DNA of 64,000 nucleotides from an uncultured Clostridia bacterium (GTDB taxonomy: Bacteria; CAYTYR01; UBA6262): positions 18,701 through 82,700 of the forward strand of contig CAYTYR010000008.1 in NCBI GenBank assembly GCA_964441745.1, written 5' to 3'. Under the pieces are notes generated by a model that worked only from the letters and a program-made list of their open reading frames with translations, searched no databases and was not told the DNA's origin. Below, one piece after another: positions 21,911 through 39,603 of the stretch (position 1 is the first letter of the stretch; each line of letters opens with the position of its first letter). Position numbers and translations under genes: made by a program.

Positions 21911-21953
21911 ACTCGCTTGATAAAATCCATTAAGGAAAAGGAAACTATCTATA

Positions 21954-23459
21954 GTGTTAAAGATATCGGAAATAAGTAAAGCCTACGGAGATCAAATTCT
22001 CTTTGACCAACTAAGCTTCAGCATTAACCGCGGTGAAAAGATCGGACTGGTGGGCAGGAATGGGCATGGGAAGTCTACCATCTTCCAAATGATCCTGGGG
22101 AATATTGAAGTAGATTCCGGTGAAATTGCCATTCCCAAGCGCTACCACATCGGCTACCTCGAACAGCATCTGCATTTCACCAAACCGACCGTACTGGAAG
22201 AATGCTGCCTGGGCTTGCCGCACGGCGAAGAATACAATACCTGGAAAGCGGAAAAGATGCTTTCCGGATTGGGCTTTGCCGAGAGCGACCTGGAAAGAAG
22301 CCCCTTAGAGTTTTCCGGCGGCTATCAGATCCGCCTAAACCTGGCTAAACTGCTGGTCTCCAATCCGGATATGCTGATGCTGGATGAGCCTAACAATTAC
22401 CTGGATATCGTAGCCATACGCTGGCTGGAAGAATTTTTAAGATCCTGGAAAGGCGAGTTCATCCTGATCACCCATGACCGCAGTTTTATGGACCGGGTTT
22501 GTACTCATACTGTCGCCATCCACCGCGCCAAAGCCAGGAAAGTCGAAGGTGATACGGAAAAGCTCTACACCCAAATTAATCAGGACGAAGAAATATACGA
22601 AAAAACCAGGCTGAACGAAGCCAAAATACGCAAACAGACAGAGCAGTTCATCGCCCGGTTCAAAGCGCGGGCCAGTTTTGCCAGCCGGACCAATTCCCGC
22701 GTCAAAAAGCTGGAGAAAATGGGTGAGATGAAAGCCCTGGATAATATCCAGGACCTGGAGCTGTATTTTAACAGCGCCCACTTTGCCGCCCACAATATGC
22801 TGTCTGCCGATGATATTTCCTTTTCCTATAGCGGCAAAGAGCCTTATTTGATCAATAAATTCACCCTGCATGTAGGGAAAAAAGACCGGATCTGCCTGAT
22901 CGGGAAAAATGGTAAAGGCAAATCCACTCTGTTAAAATTGCTGGCCGGGGAGCTGAAGCCGCTCAAAGGGAAAATTAAAAAGCATCCCACCTTGCACAAA
23001 GGTTATTTTGGGCAAACTAACAAGATCGATCTCCATGACCACAATACCGTCCTGGAAGAGATCAAGAGCGCCAATACCCAATCTTCAGACAATGCCGTGC
23101 GTAATATTGCCGGCGGCTTGATGTTTTCCGGTGATAGCGCTCTCAAGAAAATTAAGGTCCTGTCTGGCGGGGAGAAAAGCCGGGTCTTACTGGGCAAACT
23201 GCTGGTGACACCTTGCCATTTGCTGTTCCTGGATGAACCGACGAACCACTTGGACATGCAATCGTGCGATTCTTTGATCGAGGCCATCGATGACTTTGAC
23301 GGCTCGGTAATTATGGTCACCCATAATGAAATGCATTTAAGAGCCGTAGCCACCAAGCTGATCATCTTTGATAATGATAGAATCAGCACTTATAATGGCG
23401 GATACGACGATTTCCTGCGAGATATCGGCTGGTCTGATGAAGAATATGCTAACTATTAA
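21954..23459 (+). CDS. ABC-F family ATPase (two ABC domains, no TM domain)
   Basis: There are two Walker A motifs ('GRNGHGKST', 'GKNGKGKST') and two signature motifs ('[11 protein letters not shown]', '[11 protein letters not shown]'), with an inter-domain linker between them. Confidence 0.8.
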
Positions 23460-24849: not shown

Positions 24850-27366
24850 ATGACTGAACGGAAAAAACACCATGATAATAAATGGGTGACGGTCCACCGG
24901 GAAATGAGCAAAGAGGGGATCAAGGTTTCCTTTAAGGAAAGCCGCCAGTACATCATGGCCAAGGATCAGTACTCGGCAACCAAGCATGATGATTTTATGT
25001 CCATTGCCGTCTCCATCCGTGACCGTCTGGTCGAACGCTGGATCTTAACCCAGCAGCGCTATCACAAGGAGAATGCCAAGCGGGTCTATTACCTGTCACT
25101 GGAATTCCTGATCGGTCGGATGCTCAGTAATAATGTCATGAACATAGGCGTGTGGAACGAAACCTGGGAAGCACTGCAGGAACTGGGCTTTGACCTGGAA
25201 GAGATCCGTGAGCAGGAGGCCGATGCCGGGTTGGGTAACGGCGGTTTGGGACGTTTAGCTGCCTGTTTCCTCGATTCTATGGCCAGCATGGGCATACCTG
25301 CCTATGGATATGGTATCCGCTACGATTACGGCATCTTTAATCAAAAGATCATCAATGGTTACCAGGTGGAGTCGCCGGATGAATGGCTGCAACTGGGTAA
25401 CCCCTGGGAATTTAACCGTCCCGAATACACAGTGAAAATACGGTTTGGCGGATATACCCGGATGTATAATGACCAGCAGGGCAGATTGCGCGTAGAATGG
25501 CTGGATACCAGGGACGTCCTGGCTGAGCCATACGATATGCCGGTGCCGGGGTACAAAAACGACATTGTGAACACCCTGCGGCTGTGGTCTGCCCGCAGTT
25601 CAGAGGAATTCGATTTCGAATATTTCAACGACGGCGATTATGAACGCGCTGTCTATGATAAGGTCTTTTCCGAGAATATTTCCAAGGTCCTCTATCCCAA
25701 CGACATGATGATCCAGGGACGGGAGCTGCGCCTGAAACAGGAATATTTCTTTACTGCCGCGTCCATTGCTGATATTATGCGCCGGTTCAAGGTGGATAAT
25801 ACTGATATTAACCTGTTTGCCCAAAAAGCCGCCATCCACCTGAATGACACCCATCCAGCCCTGGCCATCCTGGAGCTGCTGCGCATCCTCATCGACGATG
25901 AAATGCTGGGCTGGGATACAGCCTGGGACATTGTCACCAATACCTTTGCCTATACTAATCACACCGTGATGCCGGAAGCGCTGGAAGAATGGCCTTTGCC
26001 GCTGTTCCAGGCCCTGTTGCCGCGTCACCTGGAATTGGTCTACGAGATCAATCACCGCTTCCTGCGCGAAGTAGCGAATAAGTTCCCCTTTGATACCGGG
26101 CGGCTGGCGCGCATGTCCATCATTAGTGAATACGATGCCAAATATATCCGCATGGCGTTCCTGGCAATTGTGGGCAGTCATTCAGTCAACGGCGTATCAG
26201 CGTTGCACAGTGAGCTATTGAAGACAGAGTTGTTTAAGGAGTTTTACGAATTGTGGCCGGAGAAATTTAATAATAAAACCAATGGCATTACCCCGCGCCG
26301 CTGGCTGCGCAAGTCGAATACCGCCTTGTCTGACCTGATCACCAAAAATATTGGCGAACATTGGGTGGCAAACCTGGAAGAGCTTTCACTTTTACTGCCT
26401 TATGCCGATGATCCAGCCTTCAGGCAGCAATGGCGCCAGGTTAAAACCCAGAACAAAAAGAATCTGTCTGCCTATATTCATGAACAATTGGGAATCATCG
26501 TCAATCCTGAATCCCTGTTTGACGTGCAGATCAAACGCATCCATGAGTATAAGCGGCAATTGCTCTTGACCCTGTATACCATATCCCAATATGTGAAATT
26601 CAAAGAAGCGCCGAATAACGGCCTGCCGCCGCGCACCTTTATTTTCAGCGGCAAGGCAGCTCCAGGATACGCCACGGCTAAGCTGATCATCAAATTTATC
26701 ACCAGCATCGCTGATGTTGTTAATAATGACCGCGGCATACATGACCAGCTGAAAGTTGTGTTCCTGCCCAATTACCGGGTTTCCCTGGCCGAGCGGCTAT
26801 TCCCAGCCTCTGACCTGTCCGAGCAAATTTCCCTGGCTGGAACCGAAGCATCAGGCACCGGCTGCATGAAATTCATGCTCAATGGCGCCTTGACTATCGG
26901 CACCCAGGACGGCGCTAATATTGAGATCAGGAATGAAGTTGGCGATGATAACCTGTTTGTTTTCGGCATGACTGTACAAGAAGTGCATCAGCTCAGAAAC
27001 AGGGGCTACCGGCCGCAGGAATTTATTGACCGTTCGCCAATACTGCAGAAAGTATTGTCCCTGATCGAGGGTGACTTCTTTTCACAAAGGGATCCAGGAT
27101 TGTTTGCGCCAATACTAAACAGTCTGCGCTATCTCGATACATTCATGGTTTGCGCTGATTTTGACGCTTATTGCCAGGCGCAGCAGCTAGTGGCAGAGGA
27201 TTTTCTGCGGCCAGACCTATGGACCAAGAAATCGATCATCAACACAGCCAAATCAGGCCGGTTCTCCAGCGACCGGACGATTGCCGAATATGCCCGTGAT
27301 ATTTGGAATGTGCCATGCCCGGAAATCCAGGGGATTGGACTAGACACAAAAAGTGAGTCCCTTTGA
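24850..27366 (+). CDS. glgP: Glycogen/maltodextrin phosphorylase
   Basis: The pyridoxal-phosphate region is 'EASGTGCMKFMLNGALTIGTQDGANIEI'. The 838-aa length fits, and the N-terminal region is typical of GT35 enzymes. Confidence 0.9.
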   Translation: MTERKKHHDNKWVTVHREMSKEGIKVSFKESRQYIMAKDQYSATKHDDFMSIAVSIRDRLVERWILTQQRYHKENAKRVYYLSLEFLIGRMLSNNVMNIGVWNETWEALQELGFDLEEIREQEADAGLGNGGLGRLAACFLDSMASMGIPAYGYGIRYDYGIFNQKIINGYQVESPDEWLQLGNPWEFNRPEYTVKIRFGGYTRMYNDQQGRLRVEWLDTRDVLAEPYDMPVPGYKNDIVNTLRLWSARSSEEFDFEYFNDGDYERAVYDKVFSENISKVLYPNDMMIQGRELRLKQEYFFTAASIADIMRRFKVDNTDINLFAQKAAIHLNDTHPALAILELLRILIDDEMLGWDTAWDIVTNTFAYTNHTVMPEALEEWPLPLFQALLPRHLELVYEINHRFLREVANKFPFDTGRLARMSIISEYDAKYIRMAFLAIVGSHSVNGVSALHSELLKTELFKEFYELWPEKFNNKTNGITPRRWLRKSNTALSDLITKNIGEHWVANLEELSLLLPYADDPAFRQQWRQVKTQNKKNLSAYIHEQLGIIVNPESLFDVQIKRIHEYKRQLLLTLYTISQYVKFKEAPNNGLPPRTFIFSGKAAPGYATAKLIIKFITSIADVVNNDRGIHDQLKVVFLPNYRVSLAERLFPASDLSEQISLAGTEASGTGCMKFMLNGALTIGTQDGANIEIRNEVGDDNLFVFGMTVQEVHQLRNRGYRPQEFIDRSPILQKVLSLIEGDFFSQRDPGLFAPILNSLRYLDTFMVCADFDAYCQAQQLVAEDFLRPDLWTKKSIINTAKSGRFSSDRTIAEYARDIWNVPCPEIQGIGLDTKSESL

Positions 27367-27427
27367 CCATTTAAAAGGATGACCCCGTTGTTTTCATTTT
27401 TCTACTTGACTTCTATCCTCATATATT

Positions 27428-27467
27428 GTACTATTATATAGTACATATGTACTAATAATTAGTACAT
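27428..27467 (+). promoter_or_regulatory. Operator-like array of four alternating TGTACTA/TAGTACA half-sites, including the 16-bp perfect palindrome TAGTACATATGTACTA, in the promoter of the wHTH gene
   Basis: Read directly. A TTGACT -35-like hexamer lies just upstream at about 27405. Confidence 0.5.
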
Positions 27468-27496
27468 AAAGGGAAATTAGGGGGTTGGAGGTATTT

Positions 27497-27823
27497 ATGT
27501 TAGAGGCCATGTTCGGATCGATCATTGTTGAAAGAATACTACTATATTTATTTGTGTATAAAACCGGGTATATACGAGGCATAGCCAGGTTGTATAGTAT
27601 TCCTTTAAGCACCCTCGTTAATCAATTAGATCGGCTTGAGAACGGTGGGGTCATTGTTAGCAGGCAAGCAGGGAAAATAAGGATCTATTCATTAAATCCT
27701 AGATATCCATTCATTAGAGAGCTGGAAGCTTTACTGCAAAGAGCAAAGGATGCTATCCCGGAAGATGAACAAGAAAAGTATTATAGAATGAGAACCAGGC
27801 CCCGGCGAAAAGGCAAAGTATAA
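27497..27823 (+). CDS. Small winged-HTH transcriptional regulator, putative AbiEi-like antitoxin
   Basis: The wHTH reads 'IVERILLYLFVYKTGYIRGIARLYSIPLSTLVNQLDRLENGGVIVSRQ'. Its stop overlaps the start of the downstream nucleotidyltransferase (NTase) gene by 1 nt. Confidence 0.5.
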   Translation: MLEAMFGSIIVERILLYLFVYKTGYIRGIARLYSIPLSTLVNQLDRLENGGVIVSRQAGKIRIYSLNPRYPFIRELEALLQRAKDAIPEDEQEKYYRMRTRPRRKGKV

Positions 27824-28356
27824 TGACGAAAATAGACTGGGAAAAAGTTACTTTGAGGAAGTTTGCCGAGTTGATCAGCGGCGAGCTGAACAAAAATAAT
27901 ATCAAGGCTGTCTTGGTCGGCGGCGCTTGTGTGTCGATCTATTCTCGTAACAAATACCAGTCTCAAGATCTTGACTATATATCGCCTGACTCTACGGAAA
28001 AGATAAGTGAAGCTTTGAAGAAGTTAGGTTTTACGAAAAAGGGTAATTTCCGTCATTTTTCAAATGTGAAGTGTCCATTCTATATTGAATTCCCTCCCGG
28101 TCCGCTTGCCATAGGAAATGAATTTCCAAAGAAATACAATGAATTAGCCTCGATTACGCTATTAACTCCTACTGATTGCGTGAAAGATAGATTAGCGGCA
28201 TTTTATCATTGGAATGACGAACAGTCATTGGAACAGGCATTGTTAGTGGCAAGAACACAGAAGGTTAATTTAACAGCTATTAAGAAGTGGTCGATTAATG
28301 AAAAAAACGAAGAAAAATATAACCGGTTCATATATTTGTTAAAAGCAAAAAAGTAA
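27823..28356 (+). CDS. Nucleotidyltransferase-fold protein, putative AbiEii-like toxin
   Basis: 'VLVGGACVSIYSRNKYQSQDLDYISPD' carries the GG..S....D.D minimal NTase motif. The gene is translationally coupled to the wHTH gene. Confidence 0.45.
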   Translation: MTKIDWEKVTLRKFAELISGELNKNNIKAVLVGGACVSIYSRNKYQSQDLDYISPDSTEKISEALKKLGFTKKGNFRHFSNVKCPFYIEFPPGPLAIGNEFPKKYNELASITLLTPTDCVKDRLAAFYHWNDEQSLEQALLVARTQKVNLTAIKKWSINEKNEEKYNRFIYLLKAKK

Positions 28357-28360
28357 CCAA

Positions 28361-28436
28361 CTGTCCACCTACGATCGCTTTTAATGTTCGACTGTAAGGA
28401 GTCCGCCAAAGTTTTAGTGGCGGAGACAGTGGAAGG
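28361..28436 (+). repeat. REP-like palindromic element, long form (outer arms GTCCACC...AGTGGAA enclose an inner palindrome GGAGTCCGCCAAAG...TAGTGGCGGAG)
   Basis: It begins 5 bp after the stop of the NTase gene. It shares the CCACCTACG core with the copies at 30160, 30957 and 32222. Confidence 0.6.
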
Positions 28437-28444
28437 TTCTCCTA

Positions 28445-29404
28445 ATGTTTGCCAGAAGAGTATTAATTTTTGTATTTTTAGCTTCATGCGGTCTTTTTAG
28501 AACTGCTTATGGTTTGGATTATGCCAAATACAAGAAGGAATGCCTGAAAGCTGGCTGGAAAAAGGTCAATGTTACTGTTGCGGGCAAGGAGAGACAAGTA
28601 TTGTGGAAAGGCCCGACCGGCCCCTGGAAGAGCGGGGCGATCATTGCCCTGCATGGCGGTGGCGGCAGCTATACTAATTGGGGCTATGGCCTGCGTGTAT
28701 GTCGACCGATGATAGAATTCAGTGAGTTGGCCATAACCAAGGGATTTGCCATTATCTCCCTGGACTCAGGAAGAGACCTGTTTAAAGATAAGGCGGGTAA
28801 TCCTGGTGGTAAAAGATTCGATTGTATCCCTGAGCTGGGTAGAAAAAATGTGGATCTGCCTTTTATTAAGACGGTTATCGAAAAAATCATCCCTGAGCTG
28901 CGGCCACCTGGCAGCGACCAGCATATATTTATGACCGGTATATCCAACGGCGGTTTCATGACCATTCTCGCAGCTACTTCTTTTGACGACAAGATCACTG
29001 CGTTTGCTCCGGTCTCTGCCGGCGATCCATATGGCACACATTTATTAGCGGATCCTGGATTAACCATACGTAGTAATGCCCCAGGATTGTTCTATGACAA
29101 TGAAACAGGTAAACAAATCTCTGAAGATAATGCAGCCAAGTCAGATACCTATCCCCATGAGACTGAATGGTATACAGCCAATCCAAAGAAGAAGCCAGTC
29201 TTTAAACAATTCCATCATCAAGGAGACAGCGCAGTAGACATCTCTTGCATGAAAAAAGCCGGAAACCTGTTAGTGCAGCATGGCTATATTGATGGTGGCG
29301 CCTATATTGTTAAGAACACGGGATGGAAGAGATTATGGAAGCATTTTTGGTTACGAGAGTATAATCAGCCATTGTTAGAGTTCTTTCTGCGGCAACGGCA
29401 CTAA
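28445..29404 (+). CDS. Secreted alpha/beta-hydrolase (esterase / PHB-depolymerase-like)
   Basis: A signal peptide is present. The oxyanion-region motif is 'ALHGGGGSY' and the nucleophile elbow is 'GISNGG' (GxSxG). Confidence 0.65.
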   Translation: MFARRVLIFVFLASCGLFRTAYGLDYAKYKKECLKAGWKKVNVTVAGKERQVLWKGPTGPWKSGAIIALHGGGGSYTNWGYGLRVCRPMIEFSELAITKGFAIISLDSGRDLFKDKAGNPGGKRFDCIPELGRKNVDLPFIKTVIEKIIPELRPPGSDQHIFMTGISNGGFMTILAATSFDDKITAFAPVSAGDPYGTHLLADPGLTIRSNAPGLFYDNETGKQISEDNAAKSDTYPHETEWYTANPKKKPVFKQFHHQGDSAVDISCMKKAGNLLVQHGYIDGGAYIVKNTGWKRLWKHFWLREYNQPLLEFFLRQRH

Positions 29405-29410
29405 GAATAA

Positions 29411-29472
29411 CCGTCTTTCCACCGCGCGACCCTGGGGAGTCCGCCAAGGCATTAGTGGAGGATAGGTGGAAA
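29411..29472 (+). repeat. REP-like palindromic element, long form (TTCCACC ... GGTGGAA arms with inner palindrome GGAGTCCGCCAAGG...TAGTGGAGG)
   Basis: The leader 'AACCGTCTTTCCACC' right after the stop codon is shared with the copies at 30152 and 30948. Confidence 0.6.
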
Positions 29473-29497
29473 ATAGGTTAATATATGAGGAGGGGCA

Positions 29498-30151
29498 TTG
29501 AGGAAGGATAAATTAGTAGCAGGGCAAGTGTACCATGTTTTTACCAGGAGTATTGCTGGGTATAAGATCTTTAATGACAATAGCGAATATGAGAGAATGC
29601 AAGAATTGATTCAGTATTATCAATCAAGTAAACCGGTAGTGAAGTTTTCCAGGTTTTTGATGTTGCCTAAAGACTTAAAAAATAGTCTTGGGAATGACCA
29701 GGAGATCAAAAACGATAAGCTAGTAGAGATTATTTCATATTGTCTCATGCCGACACACATACACTTTGTCCTTAAGCAAATAAAGGAAAACGGTATATCT
29801 ATCTATATGAATAAAATGTTGAATAGTTATACTAGGTATTTCAACATAAAACATGGCCGGAAGGGACCTCTCTGGGAAGCAAGGTTTAAAAGCGTATTGG
29901 CAGAAACAGACCAACAGCTTCTTCATTTGACCAGATATGTGCATCTGAATCCAGCAACAGCCAAGATAGTAAAAAACCCAGTGGAATGGTCATTTTCTTC
30001 GTATAAAGAGTATTTAGATCTTAGTACAGCAAATATATGCACATACAAAGATGTGCTTATTATTAATCCAAACGAATATAAAGAATTTGTAGAAGATAGG
30101 GTAGGATATCAAAGAGAACTTGCCGAAATCAAAGCTCTTCTGTTAGAATAG
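29498..30151 (+). CDS. REP-associated tyrosine transposase (RAYT / TnpA-REP, IS200-like Y1 HUH family)
   Basis: The HUH motif is 'CLMPTHIHFVL'. The C-terminal 'PLWEARF...YVHLNPATAKIVKNPVEWSFSSY' is collinear with E. coli RayT (YafM) 'QPRFWEH...YINPVKHGWVKQVSDWPFSTF'. The start is TTG, 4 nt after a GAGGAGG RBS. The gene is flanked on both sides by palindromic REP-like elements. Confidence 0.65.
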   Translation: MRKDKLVAGQVYHVFTRSIAGYKIFNDNSEYERMQELIQYYQSSKPVVKFSRFLMLPKDLKNSLGNDQEIKNDKLVEIISYCLMPTHIHFVLKQIKENGISIYMNKMLNSYTRYFNIKHGRKGPLWEARFKSVLAETDQQLLHLTRYVHLNPATAKIVKNPVEWSFSSYKEYLDLSTANICTYKDVLIINPNEYKEFVEDRVGYQRELAEIKALLLE

Positions 30152-30178
30152 AACCGTCTTTCCACCTACGCGGTGGAA
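30152..30178 (+). repeat. REP-like element, short form: AACCGTCTTTCCACC leader plus the 19-bp palindrome TTCCACCTACGCGGTGGAA
   Basis: It follows the RAYT stop codon directly. The arms are 7 bp perfect, the loop is 5 nt, and a CTAC tetranucleotide is present. Confidence 0.7.
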
Positions 30179-30198
30179 TGATGGTTTGAAAATTCAGC

Positions 30199-30217
30199 AT
30201 GTGCAATTTTTGCACAT
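30199..30217 (+). repeat. Perfect 19-bp palindrome ATGTGCAATTTTTGCACAT (copy 1 of 2)
   Basis: It is identical to the copy at 32157–32175. Confidence 0.7.
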
Positions 30218-30267
30218 ACTGCCAGTGATGGCACATCTCATATTTCACATCAAATGGAGGATTAGCA

Positions 30268-30765
30268 ATGTTTTATGAGGATATATTCAAAGAATTTAAC
30301 AAACGTAAGATAAAATATCTAGTTGTGGGAGGGCTCGCTGTTAATTTGCACGGTATTCCGCGTATGACTCAGGATATGGATATCATTGTTAACATGGGGG
30401 AAGATAATCTAAAGAAGATATTAGAAGGATTAGAAGCACTTAGATATAAGCCGAGATTACCTGTAAAGCCCGCAAGTTTATTAGATCCGAAGGTAAGAGC
30501 TGAATGGATGCAGAGTAAAAATCTAAAAGCCTTTACCTTTGTACATACAGAAAATCCGGCGCAGGAAGTTGATATACTATTAGTATCCCCACTGAATTTT
30601 GACGATGCCTACGCGCGGAAGACAGTAAAACACGCGGGAGATATTGTTATTAATTTAGTCAATATTTCTGATTTAATTGAGATGAAAGAAGGGATCGGAA
30701 GAACAACTGACGCTTATGATGTTAAAATGCTCAAAACATTACGCAGAATGGAGAATAATAAATGA
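30268..30765 (+). CDS. Nucleotidyltransferase-fold protein (AbiEii-like, second copy)
   Basis: 'YLVVGGLAVNLHGIPRMTQDMDIIV' carries the NTase motif. The RBS is AATGGAGGA. Confidence 0.45.
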   Translation: MFYEDIFKEFNKRKIKYLVVGGLAVNLHGIPRMTQDMDIIVNMGEDNLKKILEGLEALRYKPRLPVKPASLLDPKVRAEWMQSKNLKAFTFVHTENPAQEVDILLVSPLNFDDAYARKTVKHAGDIVINLVNISDLIEMKEGIGRTTDAYDVKMLKTLRRMENNK

Positions 30766-30944
30766 GAAATAAGCAAAGCCGGGGAGTTATAAACGAATAT
30801 CCAATAGAAGTTATTAAAAAATACAAAGCCACTTCTACTCGCTGGAAACTGGAATGGCTGGAAGAAGTGAATCGCCTGACCAATTTAACACTGACAAAAA
30901 AGCAAAAGAAGTTCAGAGAGAAGATAAGGGAAGGGCTAATATAA
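30762..30944 (+). CDS. Small basic protein (60 aa) overlapping the upstream NTase gene by 4 bp; putative partner or antitoxin
   Basis: An ATGA overlap links it to the upstream gene. It is Lys/Arg-rich and has no recognisable motif. Confidence 0.3.
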   Translation: MRNKQSRGVINEYPIEVIKKYKATSTRWKLEWLEEVNRLTNLTLTKKQKKFREKIREGLI

Positions 30945-30947
30945 TCT

Positions 30948-30975
30948 AAACCGTCTTTCCACCTACGCGGTGGAA
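30948..30975 (+). repeat. REP-like element, short form (AAACCGTCTTTCCACCTACGCGGTGGAA)
   Basis: Identical to the 30152 copy. It starts 3 bp after the stop codon. Confidence 0.7.
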
Positions 30976-31120
30976 AAAAGGTTTATAGTAAGGGTTTGGG
31001 AAAGAGGGGCAAGTTTCAAGGACTGAACTGTGCGGTATTAGGAAGCAACAAGAACTTGACAATCAGTCATAATCGTTGTATATATTACAACGTATGATGT
31101 AATAAATACAATATGAGGAT

Positions 31121-31714
31121 ATGAACTTGTCTATACTTATCAACACCAAACTAAGAAAGAGCGTTTTAACCTATTTCTTCACTCATCCTGATGAAAATTA
31201 CTATGTCCGGGAAATTGCATCAATTATCAATGAGGATCCGGGAAATTTATCCAGGGAACTGAATAAACTAGAAAAAGAAGGCCTTTTCAAGTCATTTACC
31301 CGCGGCAATTCAAAATATTATTCCCTCAGCAAAGAATACCCCTTGTACAAAGAAATTAAAGAAATAATCTTTAAAACCGAAGGCATAGAGGGTTCCTTAA
31401 GAAATATCATAACAAAATACAAAGATGTATCCCTGGCTTTCATCTACGGCTCATATGCTAAGGGAGGCGAAAATAAAGCCTCGGATATAGATTTATTAGT
31501 AGTAGGACAGTTTCCCATAAATGAATTCACCCGCAAGATCCGCAACTTGGAATCAAAAATAGGCCGCGAAATTAATTTCACCCATTATGATAAAGAAGAG
31601 TTTAAAAAAGAAGAAGCCAAAACAGGCAGTTTTCTTAACTTGATCACTAAAGGGAAAATAATAATCTTGAAAGGGGAGGTAAATGCCACTCAAACTCATA
31701 GAAAGGCTGCTTAA
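31121..31714 (+). CDS. wHTH-fused minimal nucleotidyltransferase (MNT, MntA-like antitoxin of a HEPN/MNT pair)
   Basis: The N-terminal wHTH is 'YVREIASIINEDPGNLSRELNKLEKEGL'. The MNT motif is 'FIYGSYAKGGENKASDIDLLVVG'. Confidence 0.65.
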   Translation: MNLSILINTKLRKSVLTYFFTHPDENYYVREIASIINEDPGNLSRELNKLEKEGLFKSFTRGNSKYYSLSKEYPLYKEIKEIIFKTEGIEGSLRNIITKYKDVSLAFIYGSYAKGGENKASDIDLLVVGQFPINEFTRKIRNLESKIGREINFTHYDKEEFKKEEAKTGSFLNLITKGKIIILKGEVNATQTHRKAA

Positions 31715-32150
31715 GGAAGGAAAATTAAGAAAACAAAAAGCTGGCATAGTTCAAGTAGAAGCATTGCTGAAACAATCAATATTGGATTTACAGGAAGCGC
31801 AAAAAACCTTACCGATTGCCGAACGGGCAACTTACGTTATGGCATATATGGCCATGCTCAAGGCAGGCAGAGCCTTATTATTGAGCAAGGGGTATATTCC
31901 CGATGATGGCGCGCAACACAGAACTGTAGTAGAAATAACCAGTTCTATACTGGGGAAGAATTACAGGGAAATAACAGATCAATTTGAGACCATGCGCCGC
32001 AAAAGAAATGAAATGACCTATGAAGCCGGGATACTAGTGAGCAAAAAGGAAAGCCATAAGGCATTTAAAGACGGCATTCAGCTATTAAAGCAAATCTTGA
32101 TAGAAGTGAAGAAGGGAAACCCTCAACTAGAACTAGATTTTAAATTATAG
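31683..32150 (+). CDS. HEPN-domain protein (HepT-like toxin partner of the MNT)
   Basis: It overlaps the 3' end of the MNT gene. It is all-alpha and carries 'RRKRNEMTYE' in the position of the HEPN R-x4-6-H-like motif. A GGGGAGG RBS is present. Confidence 0.5.
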   Translation: MPLKLIERLLKEGKLRKQKAGIVQVEALLKQSILDLQEAQKTLPIAERATYVMAYMAMLKAGRALLLSKGYIPDDGAQHRTVVEITSSILGKNYREITDQFETMRRKRNEMTYEAGILVSKKESHKAFKDGIQLLKQILIEVKKGNPQLELDFKL

Positions 32151-32156
32151 ATAAGT

Positions 32157-32175
32157 ATGTGCAATTTTTGCACAT
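32157..32175 (+). repeat. Perfect 19-bp palindrome ATGTGCAATTTTTGCACAT (copy 2 of 2)
   Basis: Identical to the copy at 30199. Confidence 0.7.
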
Positions 32176-32221
32176 GGTGAACAAACTAATCGAATATTTC
32201 GAATAGTTCAATTGAACAATG

Positions 32222-32240
32222 TTCCACCTACGCGGTGGAA
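32222..32240 (+). repeat. REP-like element, short form (TTCCACCTACGCGGTGGAA), here without the AACCGTCT leader
   Basis: The palindrome itself is identical to the copies at 30160 and 30957. Confidence 0.7.
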
Positions 32241-32304
32241 AAGAGGTTTACAGGGGGAAGGGTTTGTTGATAGTTGACCCAGATTATCCCCAGAGAGGTT
32301 GACG

Positions 32305-32904
32305 ATGAAAGTCATCGCTTTTAACGGCAGTGCGCGGAAAGATGGCAATACCGCATTAATGATAAAGCAAGTATTCACCGAGCTGGAGAAGGAAGGCATT
32401 GAGACCGAACTGGTCCAGTTGGCTGGGAAGAAGATGCCGGGGTGCATTGCCTGCTATAAATGCTTTGAAAATAAGAACAAGCGCTGTGCGGTAACCGGCG
32501 ATTACATGAATGAGTGTATTGAGAAGATGGACAAAGCTGACGGTGTTATCCTGGCCTCACCGACCTATTTTGCTGATTGCACAGCCAGTATGAAGGCCTT
32601 GATAGAGCGGGCGGTGTTTGTGGCTAAGGCTAATGATGAAATGTTTAAGCGCAAGATCGGGGCTTCTTTGGTCGCAGTCAGGCGGGCAGGGGCGATTCAT
32701 GCTTTTGATAGCATGAATCATTTCTTCACGATCAGCCAGATGGTTATTGTCGGGTCATCTTACTGGAATATAGGAATAGGGCGGGAAGTTGGCGAAGTCT
32801 CCGGGGACCAGGAAGGAATGAAGTGTATGAGCACTTTAGGAAAGAATATGGCCTGGCTGCTAAAGAAGATAGCGGATGGCGGAGAGAACAAAGGACGTTC
32901 GTAG
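32305..32904 (+). CDS. Iron-sulfur flavoprotein (Isf-like NADPH-dependent FMN reductase fold)
   Basis: 'MKVIAFNGSARKDGNT' is the flavodoxin-like start. 'CIACYKCFENKNKRC' is the compact C-x2-C-x2-C-x7-C cluster motif of Isf proteins. Confidence 0.65.
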   Translation: MKVIAFNGSARKDGNTALMIKQVFTELEKEGIETELVQLAGKKMPGCIACYKCFENKNKRCAVTGDYMNECIEKMDKADGVILASPTYFADCTASMKALIERAVFVAKANDEMFKRKIGASLVAVRRAGAIHAFDSMNHFFTISQMVIVGSSYWNIGIGREVGEVSGDQEGMKCMSTLGKNMAWLLKKIADGGENKGRS

Positions 32905-32945
32905 TTAGCCGCTGGCCGTAAGAGCAAAAGCAGAGCAATATATTC

Positions 32946-32974
32946 TTGACAATATTCCGTTATTAATGTATACT
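32946..32974 (+). promoter_or_regulatory. Near-consensus sigma70 promoter (TTGACA, 17-bp spacer, TATACT) driving the mazEF-like pair
   Basis: Read directly. An AAAGGAGG RBS lies downstream. Confidence 0.6.
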
Positions 32975-33006
32975 CATTGTAGATACATTAAAGGAGGTAG
33001 ATAAAG

Positions 33007-33249
33007 TTGAATACTACTGTACAGAAATGGGGTAATAGTTTAGCCTTGCGCATACCCAATGCCATGGCAAAAGATGTCCATTTACGTCAGGGATCGGTAG
33101 TGGATGTTGCCGTTGTTGATGATAAGATAGTGGTTAAATCCAAGGGGAAGCACAAATATTCTTTATCTCAATTACTTAAAGCGGTTAAAAAGAATAATCG
33201 CCATTCCGAACATAATTGGGGCAAAGCAGCAGGGCAGGAAATATGGTGA
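33007..33249 (+). CDS. mazE: MazE/PemI-family antitoxin (SpoVT/AbrB fold)
   Basis: 'VQKWGNSLALRIPNAMAKDVHLRQGSVVDV' is the swapped-hairpin motif. The start is TTG, after the RBS AAAGGAGG. Confidence 0.7.
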   Translation: MNTTVQKWGNSLALRIPNAMAKDVHLRQGSVVDVAVVDDKIVVKSKGKHKYSLSQLLKAVKKNNRHSEHNWGKAAGQEIW

Positions 33250-33590
33250 CAAAATGTTCCTATTGTCCCAAACGAGGGGACATAGTCTGGTTAGATTTTG
33301 CTCCACAGTCAGGGCATGAGCAGGCCGGTCATAGGCCTGCTCTCACTCTTTCACCGGGGTCATATAACAAAAAAGTAGGATTGGCGCTATTTTGCCCAAT
33401 TTCCACAAAGATCAAGGGTTATCCGTTTGAAGTATCTATTCCCAGCGGGTTAAAAGCTGCTGGAGTTATTTTGGCTGATCAGGTAAAGATTCTTGACTGG
33501 CAGGCTAGAAATGCGAAGTTTTGCTGCCAAATACCAGAGTCCACTTTATCTGAAGTACTGAACAAGCTTAATGTCTTATTGTCAGACTGA
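33243..33590 (+). CDS. mazF: MazF/PemK-family endoribonuclease toxin
   Basis: The motifs are 'PKRGDIVWLDFAPQSGHEQAGHRPALTLSP' and 'PISTKIKGYPFEV'. The start overlaps the mazE stop as ATGGTGA. Confidence 0.75.
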   Translation: MVTKCSYCPKRGDIVWLDFAPQSGHEQAGHRPALTLSPGSYNKKVGLALFCPISTKIKGYPFEVSIPSGLKAAGVILADQVKILDWQARNAKFCCQIPESTLSEVLNKLNVLLSD

Positions 33591-33647
33591 TTATTATATT
33601 AGCGCGGCGATAGAAATACAAATAAACGTTCAAAGTTGATACTTAAA

Positions 33648-33680
33648 CACTGGTTCTGAGTCGGAACCAGTGATTTTTTA
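33648..33680 (+). terminator. Rho-independent terminator
   Basis: The hairpin is cactggttc-tgagtcg-gaaccagtg, followed by ATTTTTT. Confidence 0.75.
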
Positions 33681-33796
33681 TGCCTGAAAATACCAAAATT
33701 TACCAAATATATACTATTATTTACTTGACAAAGTGATTAAACACTGGCATTGTCAGTATTGAAGATTTAGGCAGAAGGACAGAAGGAGACTGGAGA

Positions 33797-35335
33797 ATGA
33801 GCAAAGAGATAATGGACCTGAAGGAAGTAGCAAGATACCTGTCTTTCAGCCATAAGAAGATTTATAACCTGATCAAGGCCAGGAAGATACCTTATGCCCG
33901 GATCGGCGGTCAATACCGGTTTGTGAAAGCAAATATCGATGCCTTCCTGCTCTACAATACTAATGGCTATAAAAAATACGAGTCAGGATTTTTGAAAAAC
34001 CTGCCGATCGCTCTTGAGGATAGACTGGTTTTGACTGAAAAGGCCCCTGGCCGGAGAAAATACGATCAGTCATACTTGGATAACCTGCTGGCGCAAATGC
34101 TTTTAAAAACCGGCAAACTGTCAAAACCCGGAGCGCGGAGAATAACCGCCAAGAATGGCCGGCAGCGCGGTTCAGTAGTGATCTATCTTATCCTCATCTT
34201 AGCTTTCTTACTAGCGTTAACGCCGACCATTACCAAGATGGTAAGCGTATCGGCTAAAGATACAAAACACCAATTAATGACTACCGCTATGGCTGACAAC
34301 ATCGCCAAGGCTGGTTTGACTGATGCGGTTTCCTGGTTCCGTAAACATATGATCGTAAAAGGGACCGGCTATTATCCTAATCCGGATGACGCTTTTTATC
34401 CACGGCAGTCAGCTGGAGAGACTGAAGACGAAGCTACCGGCCTGGTGAGAAACTATATGCTTAATGATCAAGAGCAGATCTGGGCGCGGTATGAGATCAA
34501 GCGCCAGCCGGCGCCGCCAGAGCCTTATGACACCCATGCCGTGCATGATATCACTGACCAGCGGACCAATTTCCCGGCTGGTGACGGGCTGGTCTGGTAC
34601 CTGGAAAGCCAGGGCTTTATCTACAAAAAGGTAGACCCGACTAAAAATTATAATGTTGAACCAAATCGTGTTTTGTCGAAAAGCAGGATGAGCGGGGAGA
34701 TCCGCCAGTTATCCATGACCTTGCCGGTAAACGCGGCGGTTTCGTGCCAGATAGGCAGCCAGGTCCGTGTTAATAACAACGGGGTGATAGACGGCGGGAC
34801 AGATGGCTACGGTGTAGCCAGGGTCTCCGGCGGTACCGCGATCAAGACCGGCAATGGCAAAATAATCGGCACTCCGTCAGCGGAATTCTCCGGCATTGCC
34901 ACGCCCTCACTCAATTATGTCTTTGGCGTGGCAGAATCAGAGCTGAAGGGGCTGGCTGACTACCTGGTAACCAATGTCGCAAATTTGCCTGCGTCATATC
35001 CGACGATAGCTTTTGTCTTTGTGGAAGGTGATATAGAATTTAACAGTGCCCATAAGTTGGTAGGCGGCGGTATTTTATATGTCAATGGCAATCTCACCCT
35101 GGACAGCACAGCCAATTCCCTGTTCAGCGGATTGATCTATGTGACCGGGACCACGACGATCGAAGGACCGGCTCTGGTCCAGGGGGCGCTAGTTTCTTTA
35201 GGCGGAATGACCATCTCCGGCTCGGGCGATGTGGCGGAAATCGATTTCGACAGCAGTATCCTGACCACAGTGCGCCAGCAGTTAGCCTATTACCGCGAGG
35301 ACAAGACATCACTAAACCTGCTGCCTCTGTTTTAG
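33797..35335 (+). CDS. Fusion protein: N-terminal excisionase/MerR-type HTH, one TM segment, and a PilX-like (type IV minor-pilin / pilus-assembly) C-terminal domain
   Basis: 'LKEVARYLSFSHKKIYNLIKARKIPYARIGGQYRF' is an HTH_17-type motif. The TM segment 'RGSVVIYLILILAFLLAL' resembles a PilX N-terminus. The C-terminal 'GILYVNGNLTLD...GLIYVTGTTTIEG...GALVS' is paralogous to the C-terminus of ORF 57899–58819. Confidence 0.5.
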   Translation: MSKEIMDLKEVARYLSFSHKKIYNLIKARKIPYARIGGQYRFVKANIDAFLLYNTNGYKKYESGFLKNLPIALEDRLVLTEKAPGRRKYDQSYLDNLLAQMLLKTGKLSKPGARRITAKNGRQRGSVVIYLILILAFLLALTPTITKMVSVSAKDTKHQLMTTAMADNIAKAGLTDAVSWFRKHMIVKGTGYYPNPDDAFYPRQSAGETEDEATGLVRNYMLNDQEQIWARYEIKRQPAPPEPYDTHAVHDITDQRTNFPAGDGLVWYLESQGFIYKKVDPTKNYNVEPNRVLSKSRMSGEIRQLSMTLPVNAAVSCQIGSQVRVNNNGVIDGGTDGYGVARVSGGTAIKTGNGKIIGTPSAEFSGIATPSLNYVFGVAESELKGLADYLVTNVANLPASYPTIAFVFVEGDIEFNSAHKLVGGGILYVNGNLTLDSTANSLFSGLIYVTGTTTIEGPALVQGALVSLGGMTISGSGDVAEIDFDSSILTTVRQQLAYYREDKTSLNLLPLF

Positions 35336-35348
35336 AAAGGGTAATTAA

Positions 35349-38300
35349 ATGATCTGCAAAAATAAAAAACAATCAGTAAATGGATTCACCTTAATGGAGG
35401 TGATGATTTTACTTTTGGTCCTGGGAGTAGCGGCCCTGGCCGTACTACCGGTAATAAATTTTTCCACGAAGCAAAGCGTCAACATTAAGGAAAAATCGTA
35501 CGCGACGGAAAAAGCCATGCAGATGATGGAGGAGCTCCGTTCAGTGGTTTTCGAGTCGGACAATACCTATGTGCTTCAGGAATATGATAACGGCACCGCC
35601 TATAGCTCAATACTGACGACTAACAAGAATATCAGTAATCCCGGCGACCCGTTAAGCGGTAATGTGAGCGCCGGGGGCAATTGGAAATACTGCCGCCAGA
35701 TCAGCGTGATCAATCTACCGAACAATCCGGGAGCCAGAAAAGTGTTCGTGCGGGTTTTTAAGGCGGCTGACTCTACCCCGGCTGCTCCCGCCGGCGTTTT
35801 GGCGGAAATAGTCAGCGTGCTGAAAGTAGTGGGTAAGGCCTCACCGTCAACGCAGGTGTATGATGTTTACCTGATCGCGATTGAAAATGTGCCTGGCTGG
35901 TGGAGCTCTATTTATAAGATCAAACCGATCATGGATAGCGTGATCAATGACCTGCAGGCCAGGTCACCAGGGCTGGAAGTGCGCGTGCACTGGATCCGCA
36001 AACTGGCGACTGGCCGGGACTCGTATTATACGCCATATATCAATATGACTGATTATTCCAATGAGCTGGCGGCAGTGGGAAAAGTATACTATTATCCGGG
36101 CCTAATGCATAATCCCACCTCCGGCAGTGACAGCTATTATTATCATTCCGACCTTTTTTCCGGCCGGATCTGCGTGGATGGCGGCACCCCCGGCGGCGCT
36201 TATTCCCTGGCTGACCAGTATAATAACGCGGTGCGTTTCCCCGAAGAGACACCGTCATCCGGCGGAGAACCGAGTCTAAGGACATTACTGGAAGACATGA
36301 ATTCCAATCCAGATAAGTATATGAATGCTGTTTTTGTGAACCTGCATGGTGAGCTTCTGCCTTTCCCGCCGCTGCGCAATTATTCTGACGCGGCGAAGGA
36401 TCCTGTCACTCATGCTGATTGGCGGCTGGTGGCTCATCCTACTAAACTGCAGTACAACGGCACTGAGGATATTAACCTGCGGGTATATACCTATGTGATG
36501 AATCCTGACAGTTATGCCACCACGGTAAAGATACCGGTCAGCACGATTTACTTCCCGGGGCAGCTCGTGACCATAGAAGAGATAGAAGTATTGGATGGCA
36601 GTGATACCGTGGATTATGACTGGCGCGATGCCCTGTTGTATACTGATTACGAACAGACCACTTATAATGAAGGCGGAATTGACGGTACGGTGATCAAACT
36701 GAAGAATTCACCCGTGCGGCATCCCTGGAAAAATGCTTCGCCCAAGGGTGGATTGGACGATAATGCGAGACTATACGGCCTGGAATATATCCCTTGCCCG
36801 GTGGAAGCAGCGGCTGACTTCAGCCTGGACCTGGAAAATAGTACCAAGTCGAATGCCAAGAACACGGCGCGCTGGCGGATCAGGATAACTAATCCCGGTA
36901 TGGGAGTCAAAGGCTATTACGAGTATGACGCCAGTATCGGCGATGAGTGGATGAGCGGCGCTCTTTTGCCGCCGGAAAATATTTCGCGCAACTATTTCTG
37001 GGTAGTGGCCACACCGCCGCTGACTGAACAGTACCAGTTTGTCGGCGACCCGCGCCATGTACCCTATAGCGATGTCAAGCTGGCGCACCATTATAACTGG
37101 TATTTCCGGCAGGTCAGCGGCTCTGGTTACGCCGGCTTTGACGAGTCGGAAGATTACTGGTCTTCCGGCTGGATCAACAGGCTCATCTTTGACGTGCCGC
37201 GCATGTTTTCCATCTACCGCCAGGCCCTGCAAAGAACCAATTCCATCTGGACCAGTATTACCGGCTGGAGCAATTACTACATCGGAATAGGCGGCGAACT
37301 GGGAGCAGACGCCTGCAACGGCTTCCCGAGCGGTTTGCCGATCTGCGCCAAGCCCTGGGTCCCCGGCCTCACTACGCAAAAAGGAGTCGATGAGATCAGT
37401 GCTGGCACTTCTTGTGATTATAAATATACCCGGATCATCGCCAAAGACGGCGGCAGTTGGTACAGCCGCTACTGGATCGGAGAATTATGTCCGGACAGTG
37501 AATACAGCTCCTGGAAAAACGAAGGCAACCTTAATACCGGGTCCAGTAATTACTACCGCGAACATTATGATTCATCTAATACCACGAATCTATCCATCAA
37601 ACCGTCCAAGACCACCCAGGAGTATGGCTGTTCGTCATTCTTTAACGGCAAACCAAGCACGGCCAACGGTCCTTTCCGCCATACTGGCAGTACGGAGAAC
37701 GGGCTGATCCAGGACGAGGAAAAATATGTGGCTAAAGCCTTCAATTTCCCGTTACCAGCGACGATTACTGCGGAACGGCCATTCACCCTGAATTACGGCA
37801 GTTTCCCGATGGAATGGGCCGACTACGCCGCTGACCGGACCACTATTTCTACAGTGACCACTTTTTATGAATGCACGAATGATGCCGGCAATTATGACGC
37901 CGCGGCTCAGGTCAAGTTTGAAAATGGGGCCGGCGAAGGGTATGCCATACTGAACGGTTTGGCGCCGCAGATAAACTTTGGTACTGCCCAGATGGGAAAA
38001 CTGGCGATCGTCAATTCCCTGCGTGCTTTCATGAATGTCGGATTACTCAGCATAGTCAACGGGAGGATACCGCAGCTGCCGCTGGTTAATGTGGTGACGC
38101 CTAACCCGAACCTGGAATATACCAATGCCGGTCCGATAAACATCACCTGGAATTTGCAGTGGACGCGTTGGGATGGCAGTCTGTATACTGAATCTTATCC
38201 GGCTAATTTCGATGAAACCGAACTAGTCGTCTATAACGTGAAATATTCCGCCGACAATGGCAGCTCCTGGAAATTCCTGGATAACTCACCGGCCATCGCT

Positions 38301-38468
38301 GGAGTGAGAAACACGGCGAAGGATATCACCGAGCCCCAAGTCTCCTGCACCTGGGATGTCACTGGTTTCCCCAAAGGTACTTATCAAGTCAGGGTAGAAG
38401 CATTCAGGCAGAACCGCAAACTGCATTACAGCTATCACCAGATCATCTTCTATCTTAATAGTATTTAA
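35349..38468 (+). CDS. Giant prepilin-type protein (1039 aa) with a class III signal peptide; putative pilus-tip or minor-pilin adhesin
   Basis: 'KQSVNG|FTLMEVMILLLVLGVAALA' is the canonical G|FTLxE prepilin cleavage/methylation motif. The rest has no recognisable domain. Confidence 0.6.
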   Translation: MICKNKKQSVNGFTLMEVMILLLVLGVAALAVLPVINFSTKQSVNIKEKSYATEKAMQMMEELRSVVFESDNTYVLQEYDNGTAYSSILTTNKNISNPGDPLSGNVSAGGNWKYCRQISVINLPNNPGARKVFVRVFKAADSTPAAPAGVLAEIVSVLKVVGKASPSTQVYDVYLIAIENVPGWWSSIYKIKPIMDSVINDLQARSPGLEVRVHWIRKLATGRDSYYTPYINMTDYSNELAAVGKVYYYPGLMHNPTSGSDSYYYHSDLFSGRICVDGGTPGGAYSLADQYNNAVRFPEETPSSGGEPSLRTLLEDMNSNPDKYMNAVFVNLHGELLPFPPLRNYSDAAKDPVTHADWRLVAHPTKLQYNGTEDINLRVYTYVMNPDSYATTVKIPVSTIYFPGQLVTIEEIEVLDGSDTVDYDWRDALLYTDYEQTTYNEGGIDGTVIKLKNSPVRHPWKNASPKGGLDDNARLYGLEYIPCPVEAAADFSLDLENSTKSNAKNTARWRIRITNPGMGVKGYYEYDASIGDEWMSGALLPPENISRNYFWVVATPPLTEQYQFVGDPRHVPYSDVKLAHHYNWYFRQVSGSGYAGFDESEDYWSSGWINRLIFDVPRMFSIYRQALQRTNSIWTSITGWSNYYIGIGGELGADACNGFPSGLPICAKPWVPGLTTQKGVDEISAGTSCDYKYTRIIAKDGGSWYSRYWIGELCPDSEYSSWKNEGNLNTGSSNYYREHYDSSNTTNLSIKPSKTTQEYGCSSFFNGKPSTANGPFRHTGSTENGLIQDEEKYVAKAFNFPLPATITAERPFTLNYGSFPMEWADYAADRTTISTVTTFYECTNDAGNYDAAAQVKFENGAGEGYAILNGLAPQINFGTAQMGKLAIVNSLRAFMNVGLLSIVNGRIPQLPLVNVVTPNPNLEYTNAGPINITWNLQWTRWDGSLYTESYPANFDETELVVYNVKYSADNGSSWKFLDNSPAIAGVRNTAKDITEPQVSCTWDVTGFPKGTYQVRVEAFRQNRKLHYSYHQIIFYLNSI

Positions 38469-38476
38469 GAGGGTCT

Positions 38477-39493: not shown

Positions 39494-39603
39494 AGCGGTT
39501 TTTATTTAAAATTGTATTTACATCTTTAGAGGAATGATATATATTAAGGGGTGATTCATGAGTTTACATGAATTACCCTATTTTATTTAGATGGAGGAAG
39601 AAG

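Follow-up and report, generated by a model that had tools for sequence, protein, structure and literature searches.

A 64-kb window of a contig from an uncultured Clostridia bacterium (CAYTYR010000008.1, positions 18,701 to 82,700, assembly GCA_964441745.1; all coordinates below are those of this window, counted from its first nucleotide) carries, between glgP (24850–27366) and a pilus-like operon (from 33797), an island of small genes, every one of them on the + strand, in which the gene for a 217-amino-acid (aa) Y1 HUH transposase is bracketed by two copies of a hairpin. We put the probability at roughly 0.7 that this is a REPtron-like unit, that is, a low-copy Y1 enzyme of the REP-associated tyrosine transposase (RAYT) class together with its cognate repetitive extragenic palindrome (REP)-like hairpins, two of which bracket the gene, with three more in intergenic gaps close by, within a variable island of toxin-antitoxin genes. 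The Y1 gene and the hairpin travel together in hundreds of divergent genomes, and gene-less copies of the hairpin are scattered between ordinary genes. REPs and RAYTs are the standard example of a transposase that has been domesticated and has miniature mobile DNA of its own, and almost all work on them has been done in Proteobacteria; the locus extends this known system and reveals no new type of gene-capture system.

The hairpins make up one palindrome family with five copies within 28355–32248 and no further copy in the window (Table 1). Their common architecture is AACC-N4-TTCCACC-loop-GGTGGAA-N4-GGTT, in which the loop of the short forms is TACGC. The 19-nucleotide core of the short forms (the 19-mer TTCCACCTACGCGGTGGAA) is found exactly at 30160, 30957 and 32222, three occurrences in 64 kb where 0.01 are expected and a count that none of 100 shuffles of the window reached. 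A previous reading of these letters (the original prediction) had given all three short forms the leader AACCGTCT in front of the core; the core is indeed exact in all three, but the copy at 32222 has GAACAATG in place of that leader. It had also put a copy 3–5 bp behind the stop codon of most genes. This describes four units well (the nucleotidyltransferase-like gene at 27823, the esterase gene, the Y1 gene and the 60-aa open reading frame (ORF)), where the foot lies −2 to +5 nt from the end of the stop codon, but the copy behind the HEPN gene is 63 nt away from it and the flavoprotein and mazF genes have none. The Y1 gene fits closely between its hairpins, both here and in its relatives: the upstream one ends 15–20 nt ahead of the start codon, which leaves room for a ribosome-binding site only, and the downstream one begins at or beside the stop codon. 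When folded as single-stranded DNA the short forms at 30148 and 30945 have z scores of −5.3 and −5.0, and the degenerate copy 5 and the long forms have scores of −1.9 to −2.6. Rfam gave nothing at its gathering thresholds across the whole window, and only noise at E values up to 1 over 28200–32400.

The HUH protein had been proposed to be a RAYT homologue, and sequence, motif and predicted fold agree that it is RAYT-like, its nearest solved relative being E. coli TnpAREP. It carries the HuH motif MPTHIH (H87 and H89), a GPLWE motif, and the catalytic tyrosine in RYVHLNP (Y147, with N151); an HuH motif with a single tyrosine in Y-x3-N-P is the signature of class 2 of the TnpAY1 proteins, the RAYT class. 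Pfam finds Y1_Tnp (E = 8e-9), the sole NCBIfam match is REP_Tyr_transpos (NF047646, E = 1.5e-15, 57.3 bits), and the sole meaningful match in the PDB by sequence is TnpAREP (4ER8, E = 5e-4), aligned across the HuH and tyrosine motifs. An AlphaFold model built on 36 homologues (pLDDT 85, pTM 0.84) has the TnpA/TnpAREP fold, and a fold search with it returned 4ER8 at the top (E = 1e-6, TM score 0.65 on the target), followed by ISDra2, IS608 and IS200 TnpA. The 36 homologues, which are 55–90% identical to the window protein, have MPTHxH, GPLWE, RY[IV]HLNP and SSY unchanged, and H87, H89, Y147 and N151 are invariant among them; none of the catalytic residues is missing from the window enzyme. The family is a large one, comprising at least 2379 clusters at 90% identity and, at 50% identity with E values up to 1e-30, 272 representatives; judging by source names it is present in Omnitrophota, Elusimicrobiota (Elusimicrobia), Planctomycetota (Candidatus Scalindua) and metagenome-assembled genomes (MAGs) assigned to other phyla. 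Plasmids of cultured bacteria match it in the catalytic core only, with identities of 40% at most, and every annotated match is named "transposase".

The evidence that ties the hairpin to the protein comes from other genomes, where loci were chosen either by the hairpin alone or by the protein alone. The hairpin-first set contains 58 loci selected by the exact 19-mer in one-genome-per-species data; about five of these are chance matches inside ORFs of unrelated genera, about the number given by our own estimate of chance. The original prediction had noted that palindromes occurring only at this locus would speak for local terminators or operators, and the 19-mer is not so confined: about 30 species-level MAGs have it, most of them Omnitrophota, and a single MAG often has it on several contigs, at up to seven loci. 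A Y1 homologue is present in 11 of the 58 loci and adjoins the hairpin in eight of them, and among 93 hairpin neighbours Y1_Tnp recurs more often than any other Pfam family. The remaining 47 loci (about five of which are chance matches) have no Y1 homologue, and there the neighbours of the solo hairpins are genes of histidine biosynthesis, those for DnaB, ribosomal protein L13 and MutL, and the like; the palindrome is thus dispersed in extragenic DNA away from the Y1 gene, which is one mark of a REPtron. The exact 19-mer was also seen in MAGs labelled Roizmanbacteria, Peribacteria, Dehalococcoidales, Clostridia and Maribacter (loci L016, L023, L048, L001, L005 and L027), and in L016 it stands directly behind a tRNA gene.

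For the protein-first approach 80 metagenomic loci were chosen by their Y1 protein motifs. A perfect hairpin of at least 6 bp is present in 62 of 72 upstream and 63 of 78 downstream flanks of these genes, and in 47 of 70 loci the same apical stem is found on both sides. Hairpins centred on ACC-N5-GGT occupy 77 of 137 flanks (56%) and only 14 of 1886 control windows of equal size taken from the same loci (0.7%), which gives an odds ratio of 172 (p = 5e-86). (An earlier, strict scan for AACC..GGTT with perfect stems of at least 6 bp yielded too few copies to use.) Protein-first contexts from four lineages (L060, L061, L062 and L066) have a hairpin on each side of the Y1 gene in all four cases, and so does L148; the stems differ among the four lineages, being TTCCACC, TTCCACTT, TTACACCC and TCCCACC. 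Bracketing of the gene by one palindrome family, a second mark of a REPtron, is what copies 2 and 3 provide in the window. Since the association of hairpin and gene recurs in every related genome examined, and since sequence, motif and predicted fold all place the protein with the RAYTs as RAYT-like, the palindromes can be regarded as the cognate REP-like elements of the HUH protein, as had been suggested.

The hairpins of different genomes also share a structure. In a gapless, centred alignment of 85 ACC-N5-GGT hairpins, passed through a filter that demanded CC and GG, the apex ACC...GGT is invariant and the AACC/GGTT feet are conserved, and 12 of 15 base pairs vary on both sides through compensatory changes. 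These hairpins have a covariation score of 0.50, where shuffles score 0.17 and slid controls no higher than 0.16, with the proviso that only the outer pairs are an independent test of covariation, because the inner six were selected as paired. The family offers a clean natural data set on how a Y1 enzyme reads a hairpin, in which the apex is invariant and the stem co-varies freely.

Could these be host regulatory hairpins only, with no link to Y1 chemistry, such as terminators, stabilisers of mRNA 3' ends or protein operators? The hairpins are stable, four copies begin no more than 5 nt from a stop codon, and where an exact 19-mer copy has an ORF stop within 45 nt, its loop is sense relative to the upstream gene in about 19 cases and antisense in 7, all of which would suit such a role. 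However, the orientation bias fades to 33 versus 20 under a looser definition of neighbour, no hairpin has a T tail although the organism possesses a canonical terminator behind mazF, no Rfam family matches, and an identical 19-mer in about 30 species, with an apex that is invariant wherever Y1 occurs, is unlike the way terminators evolve. We consider a purely regulatory role highly improbable. Intrinsic terminators were rejected as a candidate separately, since a consensus scan called none of the five copies and made its sole strong call in the window at 33648–33672.

A different alternative is that the hairpin-Y1-hairpin unit (about 780 bp, 29409–30186) is itself mobile as an autonomous minimal insertion sequence (IS) of the IS200/IS605 type, and that the solo hairpins are miniature derivatives of it or scars of its excision or insertion. 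In its favour, the closest relative of the window locus, L148 (88% nucleotide identity), is homologous over 29401–29423 and then from 29463 to 30178, so that the match runs only between the upstream hairpin's left foot and the downstream hairpin's 3' arm, with different genes outside; each genome has other genes beside Y1, even where the proteins are 78–90% identical, and most of these neighbours are housekeeping genes; the unit is of IS200 size; and many family members are found on contigs of about 1 kb, as is the case for repeated DNA. The fold, the subterminal hairpins and the unit of about 0.8 kb, together with the end of the L148 homology at the hairpins, are points of resemblance to IS608 and ISDra2. 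On the other hand, the IS200/IS605 proteins are about 130–150 aa long and have the catalytic motif Y---Q (subclass 1.1 in the case of IS200; PMC6006769), and the elements differ at their left and right ends, occur in many near-identical copies and often include tnpB; none of these features was seen here. The window protein has instead the class 2 motif Y---NP (Y-HL-N-P) and matches no IS200/IS605 model in NCBIfam, so it does not score as a canonical IS200 TnpA, an affinity that the original prediction had named among those that would count against it. The same hairpin stands at both ends, there is one Y1 gene in the 64 kb, the clusters at 90% identity are mostly on one or two contigs each and not on many, and 47 of the 58 hairpin loci have no Y1 gene. 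In the Elusimicrobia an identical Y1 protein recurs in the same context in every assembly shown, in at least four places among the matches listed (with 18 similar ones besides). We therefore think it unlikely that the unit is such an IS. One MAG, JAKLQT, has two loci with partial Y1 genes.

Several observations nevertheless weigh against the REPtron-like interpretation. The hairpins appear to be few: there are 27 of them in the 306 kb outside gene flanks of the metagenomic loci, so that there are probably tens per genome at most, and for classical REPs the figure exceeds 100. Only about half of the loci have their two flanking copies in inverted orientation relative to one another, and the homology between the window and L148 stops at the hairpins with different neighbours beyond, which is what an autonomous insertion sequence would look like as well. 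The canonical 5' GT[AG]G foot of REPs is absent, the feet being AACC/GGTT; GTAG is confined to the apex, where it spans the loop-stem junction in just one of the two loop orientations, and hairpins with the loops CCG, CGG, CAG or CTG lack it. The NF047646 score of 57 bits is under the curated RAYT cutoff of 80. Finally, the nearest group by motif would be subclass 2.1, and this subclass is reported to lack REPs (PMC6006769). The locus behaves as a REPtron would, and its enzyme falls in class 2 of the TnpAY1 proteins, but the locus departs from the canonical definition in two respects, the NF047646 cutoff and the GT[AG]G foot.

Comparison with the E. coli REPtron (TnpAREP, also called RayT or YafM; 4ER8; PMC3333891) brings out both sides of this. 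The two systems have in common a Y1 HUH enzyme with a single catalytic tyrosine in Y---NP, a gene bracketed by its own palindromes, and further copies of these dispersed in intergenic DNA, and TnpAREP is the best match of the window protein by both sequence and predicted fold. They differ in that the window hairpins have no 5' GT[AG]G foot, but AACC/GGTT feet and the invariant ACC-N5-GGT apex, in that their copy number is far lower and they abut the start and stop of the gene, and in that the 217-aa protein has a family-specific N-terminal part and C-terminal helix, shares only 16% identity with TnpAREP when the structures are aligned, and scores below the NF047646 cutoff. In the classification of Quentin et al. 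(2018; PMC6006769) Y---NP defines class 2, and Y[IV]HLNP, W[EQ] and SS define subclass 2.1 (the Group 1 RAYTs of Bertels et al. 2017). The window protein has these three features and, like that subclass, is longer than 200 aa (Table 1 of that paper), but its HuH box is THxH and not NH[VYF]H, it has no DnaA_C-like helix-turn-helix (HTH) tail, and its family is flanked by hairpins in most loci, whereas subclass 2.1 is reported without REP-like structures, some members having terminal inverted repeats (PMC6006769). The family offers a test of the view that subclass 2.1, or Group 1, RAYTs have no REPs. Group 1 RAYT genes are flanked by 16-mers of low genomic frequency, about 12 (PMC5581495), which fits the low hairpin copy number here.

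It had been thought that REP/RAYT systems are hardly known outside Proteobacteria, and this does not hold: tagged REPs have been described in more than 80 species of eight phyla, including Planctomycetes (Di Nocera et al. 2013; PMC3733652), and about 25% of species have class 2 TnpAY1 genes, five subclasses of which show REPtron arrangements (PMC6006769). The CGTC-tagged REPs of the former report resemble the short form of the window (30153–30178 and 30950–30976) in having CGTC, an 8-bp stem that starts with two A-T pairs, and a 5-nt loop, to judge by the verbal description of those REPs. They differ in that CGTC is not conserved in the other genomes of the window family, and in that the CGTC-tagged REPs are reported to have no flanking transposase gene (PMC3733652). 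Our literature search found no paper that links RAYTs or REPINs (REP-derived hairpin elements) with Omnitrophica or Elusimicrobia. What is novel here is the hairpin type (a double AACC/GGTT foot and an invariant apex, with no GT[AG]G foot) and a widespread, uncharacterised Y1 family; the tight abutment of the hairpins to the gene and the hosts in uncultivated phyla are further differences from the described systems.

By analogy with IS608, ISDra2 and TnpAREP, the Y1 enzyme of such a unit would bind the hairpin once single-stranded DNA, such as the lagging-strand template, has extruded it, cut near one of its feet through a 5'-phosphotyrosine link, and rejoin the DNA. Hairpin units might occasionally be copied or moved in this way to new intergenic sites, often right behind stop codons. 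Because the upstream copy ends so close to the start codon of the Y1 gene, it probably also allows the protein or the hairpin to limit expression of that gene, and copies at gene 3' ends may simply be tolerated or may be useful as mRNA 3'-end hairpins.

The two long forms had been described as a class with a second, inner palindrome, and they are ordinary hairpin copies hit by a small nested palindromic element, not a second structural class. This follows because L148 and L030 carry the uninterrupted hairpin TTCCACC-GCGTA-GGTGGAA 5' of the Y1 gene, where the window's same hairpin (copy 2) has 36 extra bases in its loop (29427–29462), and because both inserts in the window (29427–29462 and 28374–28428) share the inner palindrome TCCGCCA-N9-TGG(C/A)GGA. 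The loop of copy 1 begins with TACG (sense) and carries an insert of about 53 nt, with the form TCCGCCA-N9-TGGCGGA, that is related to the insert of copy 2 but longer and lies in a loop of the opposite orientation. The two nested inserts share their absolute orientation although their host loops are opposite, and a palindrome similar to the inner one is present at 41684–41706, within an ORF.

Contigs from short-read assemblies of the same genome (L059, L149 and L150, compared with 28380–31330) break at or beside hairpins, and many Y1 homologues are on contigs of only about 1 kb, so the hairpin repeat seems to fragment the assemblies of these MAGs; this is a practical explanation for assembly breaks in them.

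Table 1. Hairpins, genes and other features of the island (window coordinates)
Feature	Position	Strand	Remarks
Two tandem 21-nt palindromes	27427–27468		TGTACTAnTAnnTAGTACA; units TGTACTATTATATAGTACATA and TGTACTAATAATTAGTACATA; 5' of first wHTH gene
Module 1, small winged helix-turn-helix (wHTH) protein	27485–27823	+	Weak matches only
Module 1, nucleotidyltransferase-like protein	27823–28356	+	Weak matches only
Hairpin copy 1, long form	28355–28438	+	Foot AACC overlaps stop codon TAA; arms GTCCACC / GTGGAA
Putative secreted esterase	28445–29404	+	Polyhydroxybutyrate (PHB)-depolymerase / S15-like, weak (PHB-depolymerase-like, E = 4e-7)
Hairpin copy 2, long form, upstream flank of Y1 gene	29409–29479	+	Opposite loop orientation (GCG..TA); 36-nt insert
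Y1 HUH single-strand-DNA transposase, RAYT-like, 217 aa	29498–30151	+	Pfam Y1_Tnp, NF047646, 4ER8
Hairpin copy 3, short form, downstream flank of Y1 gene	30152–30186	+	Begins at base after stop codon TAG
Second, unrelated palindrome	30196–30217 and 32154–32175		ATGTGCAATTTTTGCACAT; copies 95% identical
DUF6036 nucleotidyltransferase	30268–30765	+	Pfam; pair with next also in L115 and L152–L154
60-aa partner, overlapping	30762–30944	+	
Hairpin copy 4, short form	30949–30983	+	5 nt past stop of 60-aa ORF
wHTH-MNT nucleotidyltransferase	31121–31714	+	PADLOC candidate system PDC-M05A
HEPN protein	31683–32150	+	PADLOC candidate system PDC-M05B
Hairpin copy 5, short form	32214–32248	+	Exact core, degenerate left foot
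FMN reductase / iron-sulfur flavoprotein-like gene	32299–32904	+	FMN_red
mazE	33007–33249	+	MazE
mazF	~33243–33590	+	MazF
Canonical intrinsic terminator closing the island	33648–33672	+	11-bp stem, then T run

The genes of the island had been listed before as a series of toxin-antitoxin and accessory modules, and profile searches bear out most of that list: Y1_Tnp, the wHTH-MNT/HEPN pair (E = 9e-50 and 1e-14 with the PADLOC models PDC-M05A and PDC-M05B), the DUF6036 nucleotidyltransferase with its 60-aa partner, FMN_red and MazE/MazF are all clear. The first wHTH/nucleotidyltransferase pair and the esterase have only weak matches; the wHTH protein at 27485 matches an ArsR-like HTH (E = 5e-5) and the N-terminal part of PDC-M05A (E = 8e-8), and the protein at 27823 matches DUF2204 in Pfam (E = 0.009). 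The island was also said to be AT-rich, which was taken to suggest horizontal acquisition. Its GC content is indeed 37–44%, against about 47–52% on both sides, and the island is missing at the matching position in a relative whose GlgP is 93% identical (L155, JAQTPL010000001.1). Synteny of that contig with the window extends from 13850 up to where glgP ends; beyond this point the two are entirely different, and the contig has neither the island nor the pilus-like operon. The island lies at a synteny break, but the L155 comparison defines no clean empty site, and a simple insertion of the island was rejected as a description. Window genes at 19946–23459 (RNase R and ABC-F) have no match in the L155 stretch compared.

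The suggestion that the repeats delimit a mobile cassette array is not supported. Solo hairpins and Y1 genes in other genomes sit mostly among housekeeping genes; among 148 ORFs that neighbour Y1 in 45 loci, diverse housekeeping genes predominate and toxin-antitoxin families occur just twice each. A comparison of relatives for gain or loss of cassettes at repeat boundaries had been proposed, and the sole rearrangement found in a close relative breaks at gene ends and not at hairpins. In that locus (L151, from Logan SRR22387926) the MNT gene (87% nucleotide identity to 31322–31719) is directly 5' of the DUF6036 gene (84% to 30267–30844; the protein is 85% identical), with no HEPN gene and no hairpin between the two; module order in the island is thus plastic. 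The DUF6036 module is found beside queC and without hairpins in L152–L154, and one homologue of its nucleotidyltransferase (P0122) is a 92% identical protein. A tblastn search of 147 loci with all island proteins found only distant relatives, namely a DUF6036 nucleotidyltransferase at 36% identity (L115) and MNT proteins at about 40% (L011 and L072). The toxin-antitoxin genes are neighbours of the REPtron-like unit in a plastic region and not its cargo.

There are only hints of cassette behaviour, namely the homology break at the hairpins of the Y1 unit in L148 and a similar array in L115, where seven hairpins in 5.8 kb each stand behind a small module (PIN-like, MNT/HEPN, DUF6036 with its partner), with a Y1 gene among the modules and the DUF6036 module on the side of Y1 opposite to that in the window. 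One could imagine an HUH-driven analogue of an integron array, in which Y1 lifts the gene block between two hairpins as a single-stranded circle and re-inserts it beside another hairpin; if that were true, the toxin-antitoxin and defence arrays of the window and L115 would be the HUH-driven counterpart of integron cassettes. Two independent loci with a module-hairpin-module-hairpin layout around Y1 point in this direction, as do the ends of homology in L148 and the small second element that has inserted twice in hairpin loops. Most Y1 loci have only housekeeping neighbours, however, the module shared between the two arrays is only 36% identical, the DUF6036 module exists without hairpins elsewhere, and the L151 rearrangement is not at hairpins, and we judge the idea very unlikely.

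A true integron cassette array without an integrase (a CALIN) is a further possibility that the layout brings to mind, with the palindromes as attC sites, their AAC/GTT feet as R boxes and TTCCACC/GGTGGAA as L boxes. The order AAC-spacer-inner stem-variable loop-inner stem-spacer-GTT is similar, the sites lie behind the 3' ends of small co-oriented genes, many of them toxin-antitoxin genes, and loop length varies, as the long forms show. Typical attC sites are about 55–140 nt long, and the short forms here measure only 35 nt. In other genomes the sites are single, between housekeeping genes on many contigs and so not confined to arrays, and they bracket Y1 in most loci; their stems are often fully paired from foot to apex (L070, L077 and L094), with no conserved extrahelical bases or unpaired central spacer; and the modules of the island carry apparent operator palindromes of their own. 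An integron integrase, which the original prediction had asked to be looked for, was not found: Pfam detects no Phage_integrase domain, and hence no tyrosine recombinase, in 30 ORFs of the window (six large or unscanned ORFs lay outside the scan), nor is this family among the 25 most frequent ones of the 93 hairpin neighbours or of the 148 Y1 neighbours. The attC interpretation was accordingly rejected for the lack of an integrase, the single sites, the fully paired stems and the tie to the Y1 gene, and is almost certainly wrong.

Other palindromes in the island do not belong to the hairpin family. The tandem pair in front of the first wHTH gene is probably the operator of that module and lies outside the REP family. 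The two copies of ATGTGCAATTTTTGCACAT bracket a block that consists of the DUF6036 module, hairpin 4 and the MNT/HEPN module; this palindrome was not found in the other fetched loci, apart from contigs of the same genome, and it could be an operator or mark the ends of a small element. In other genomes a second hairpin type, (G)TCAACC-loop-GGTTGA(C) followed by GAGAGTAGCGGTC, was seen along with clusters that resemble bacterial interspersed mosaic elements (BIMEs) (L026 890–4368, L030 76–1567, L060 7830–7870, L134 483–562 and 3854–3893); such clusters consist of two or three hairpins at a spacing of 39–40 nt with alternating loop orientation. Downstream of the island, 33797–41559 encodes an excisionase/MADS1-like HTH joined in one protein to a body of about 460 aa. 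Behind it come very large proteins, one of which has an N-terminal methylation (pseudopilin) motif, and an AAA_5/McrB-like protein that matches PADLOC restriction-enzyme models.

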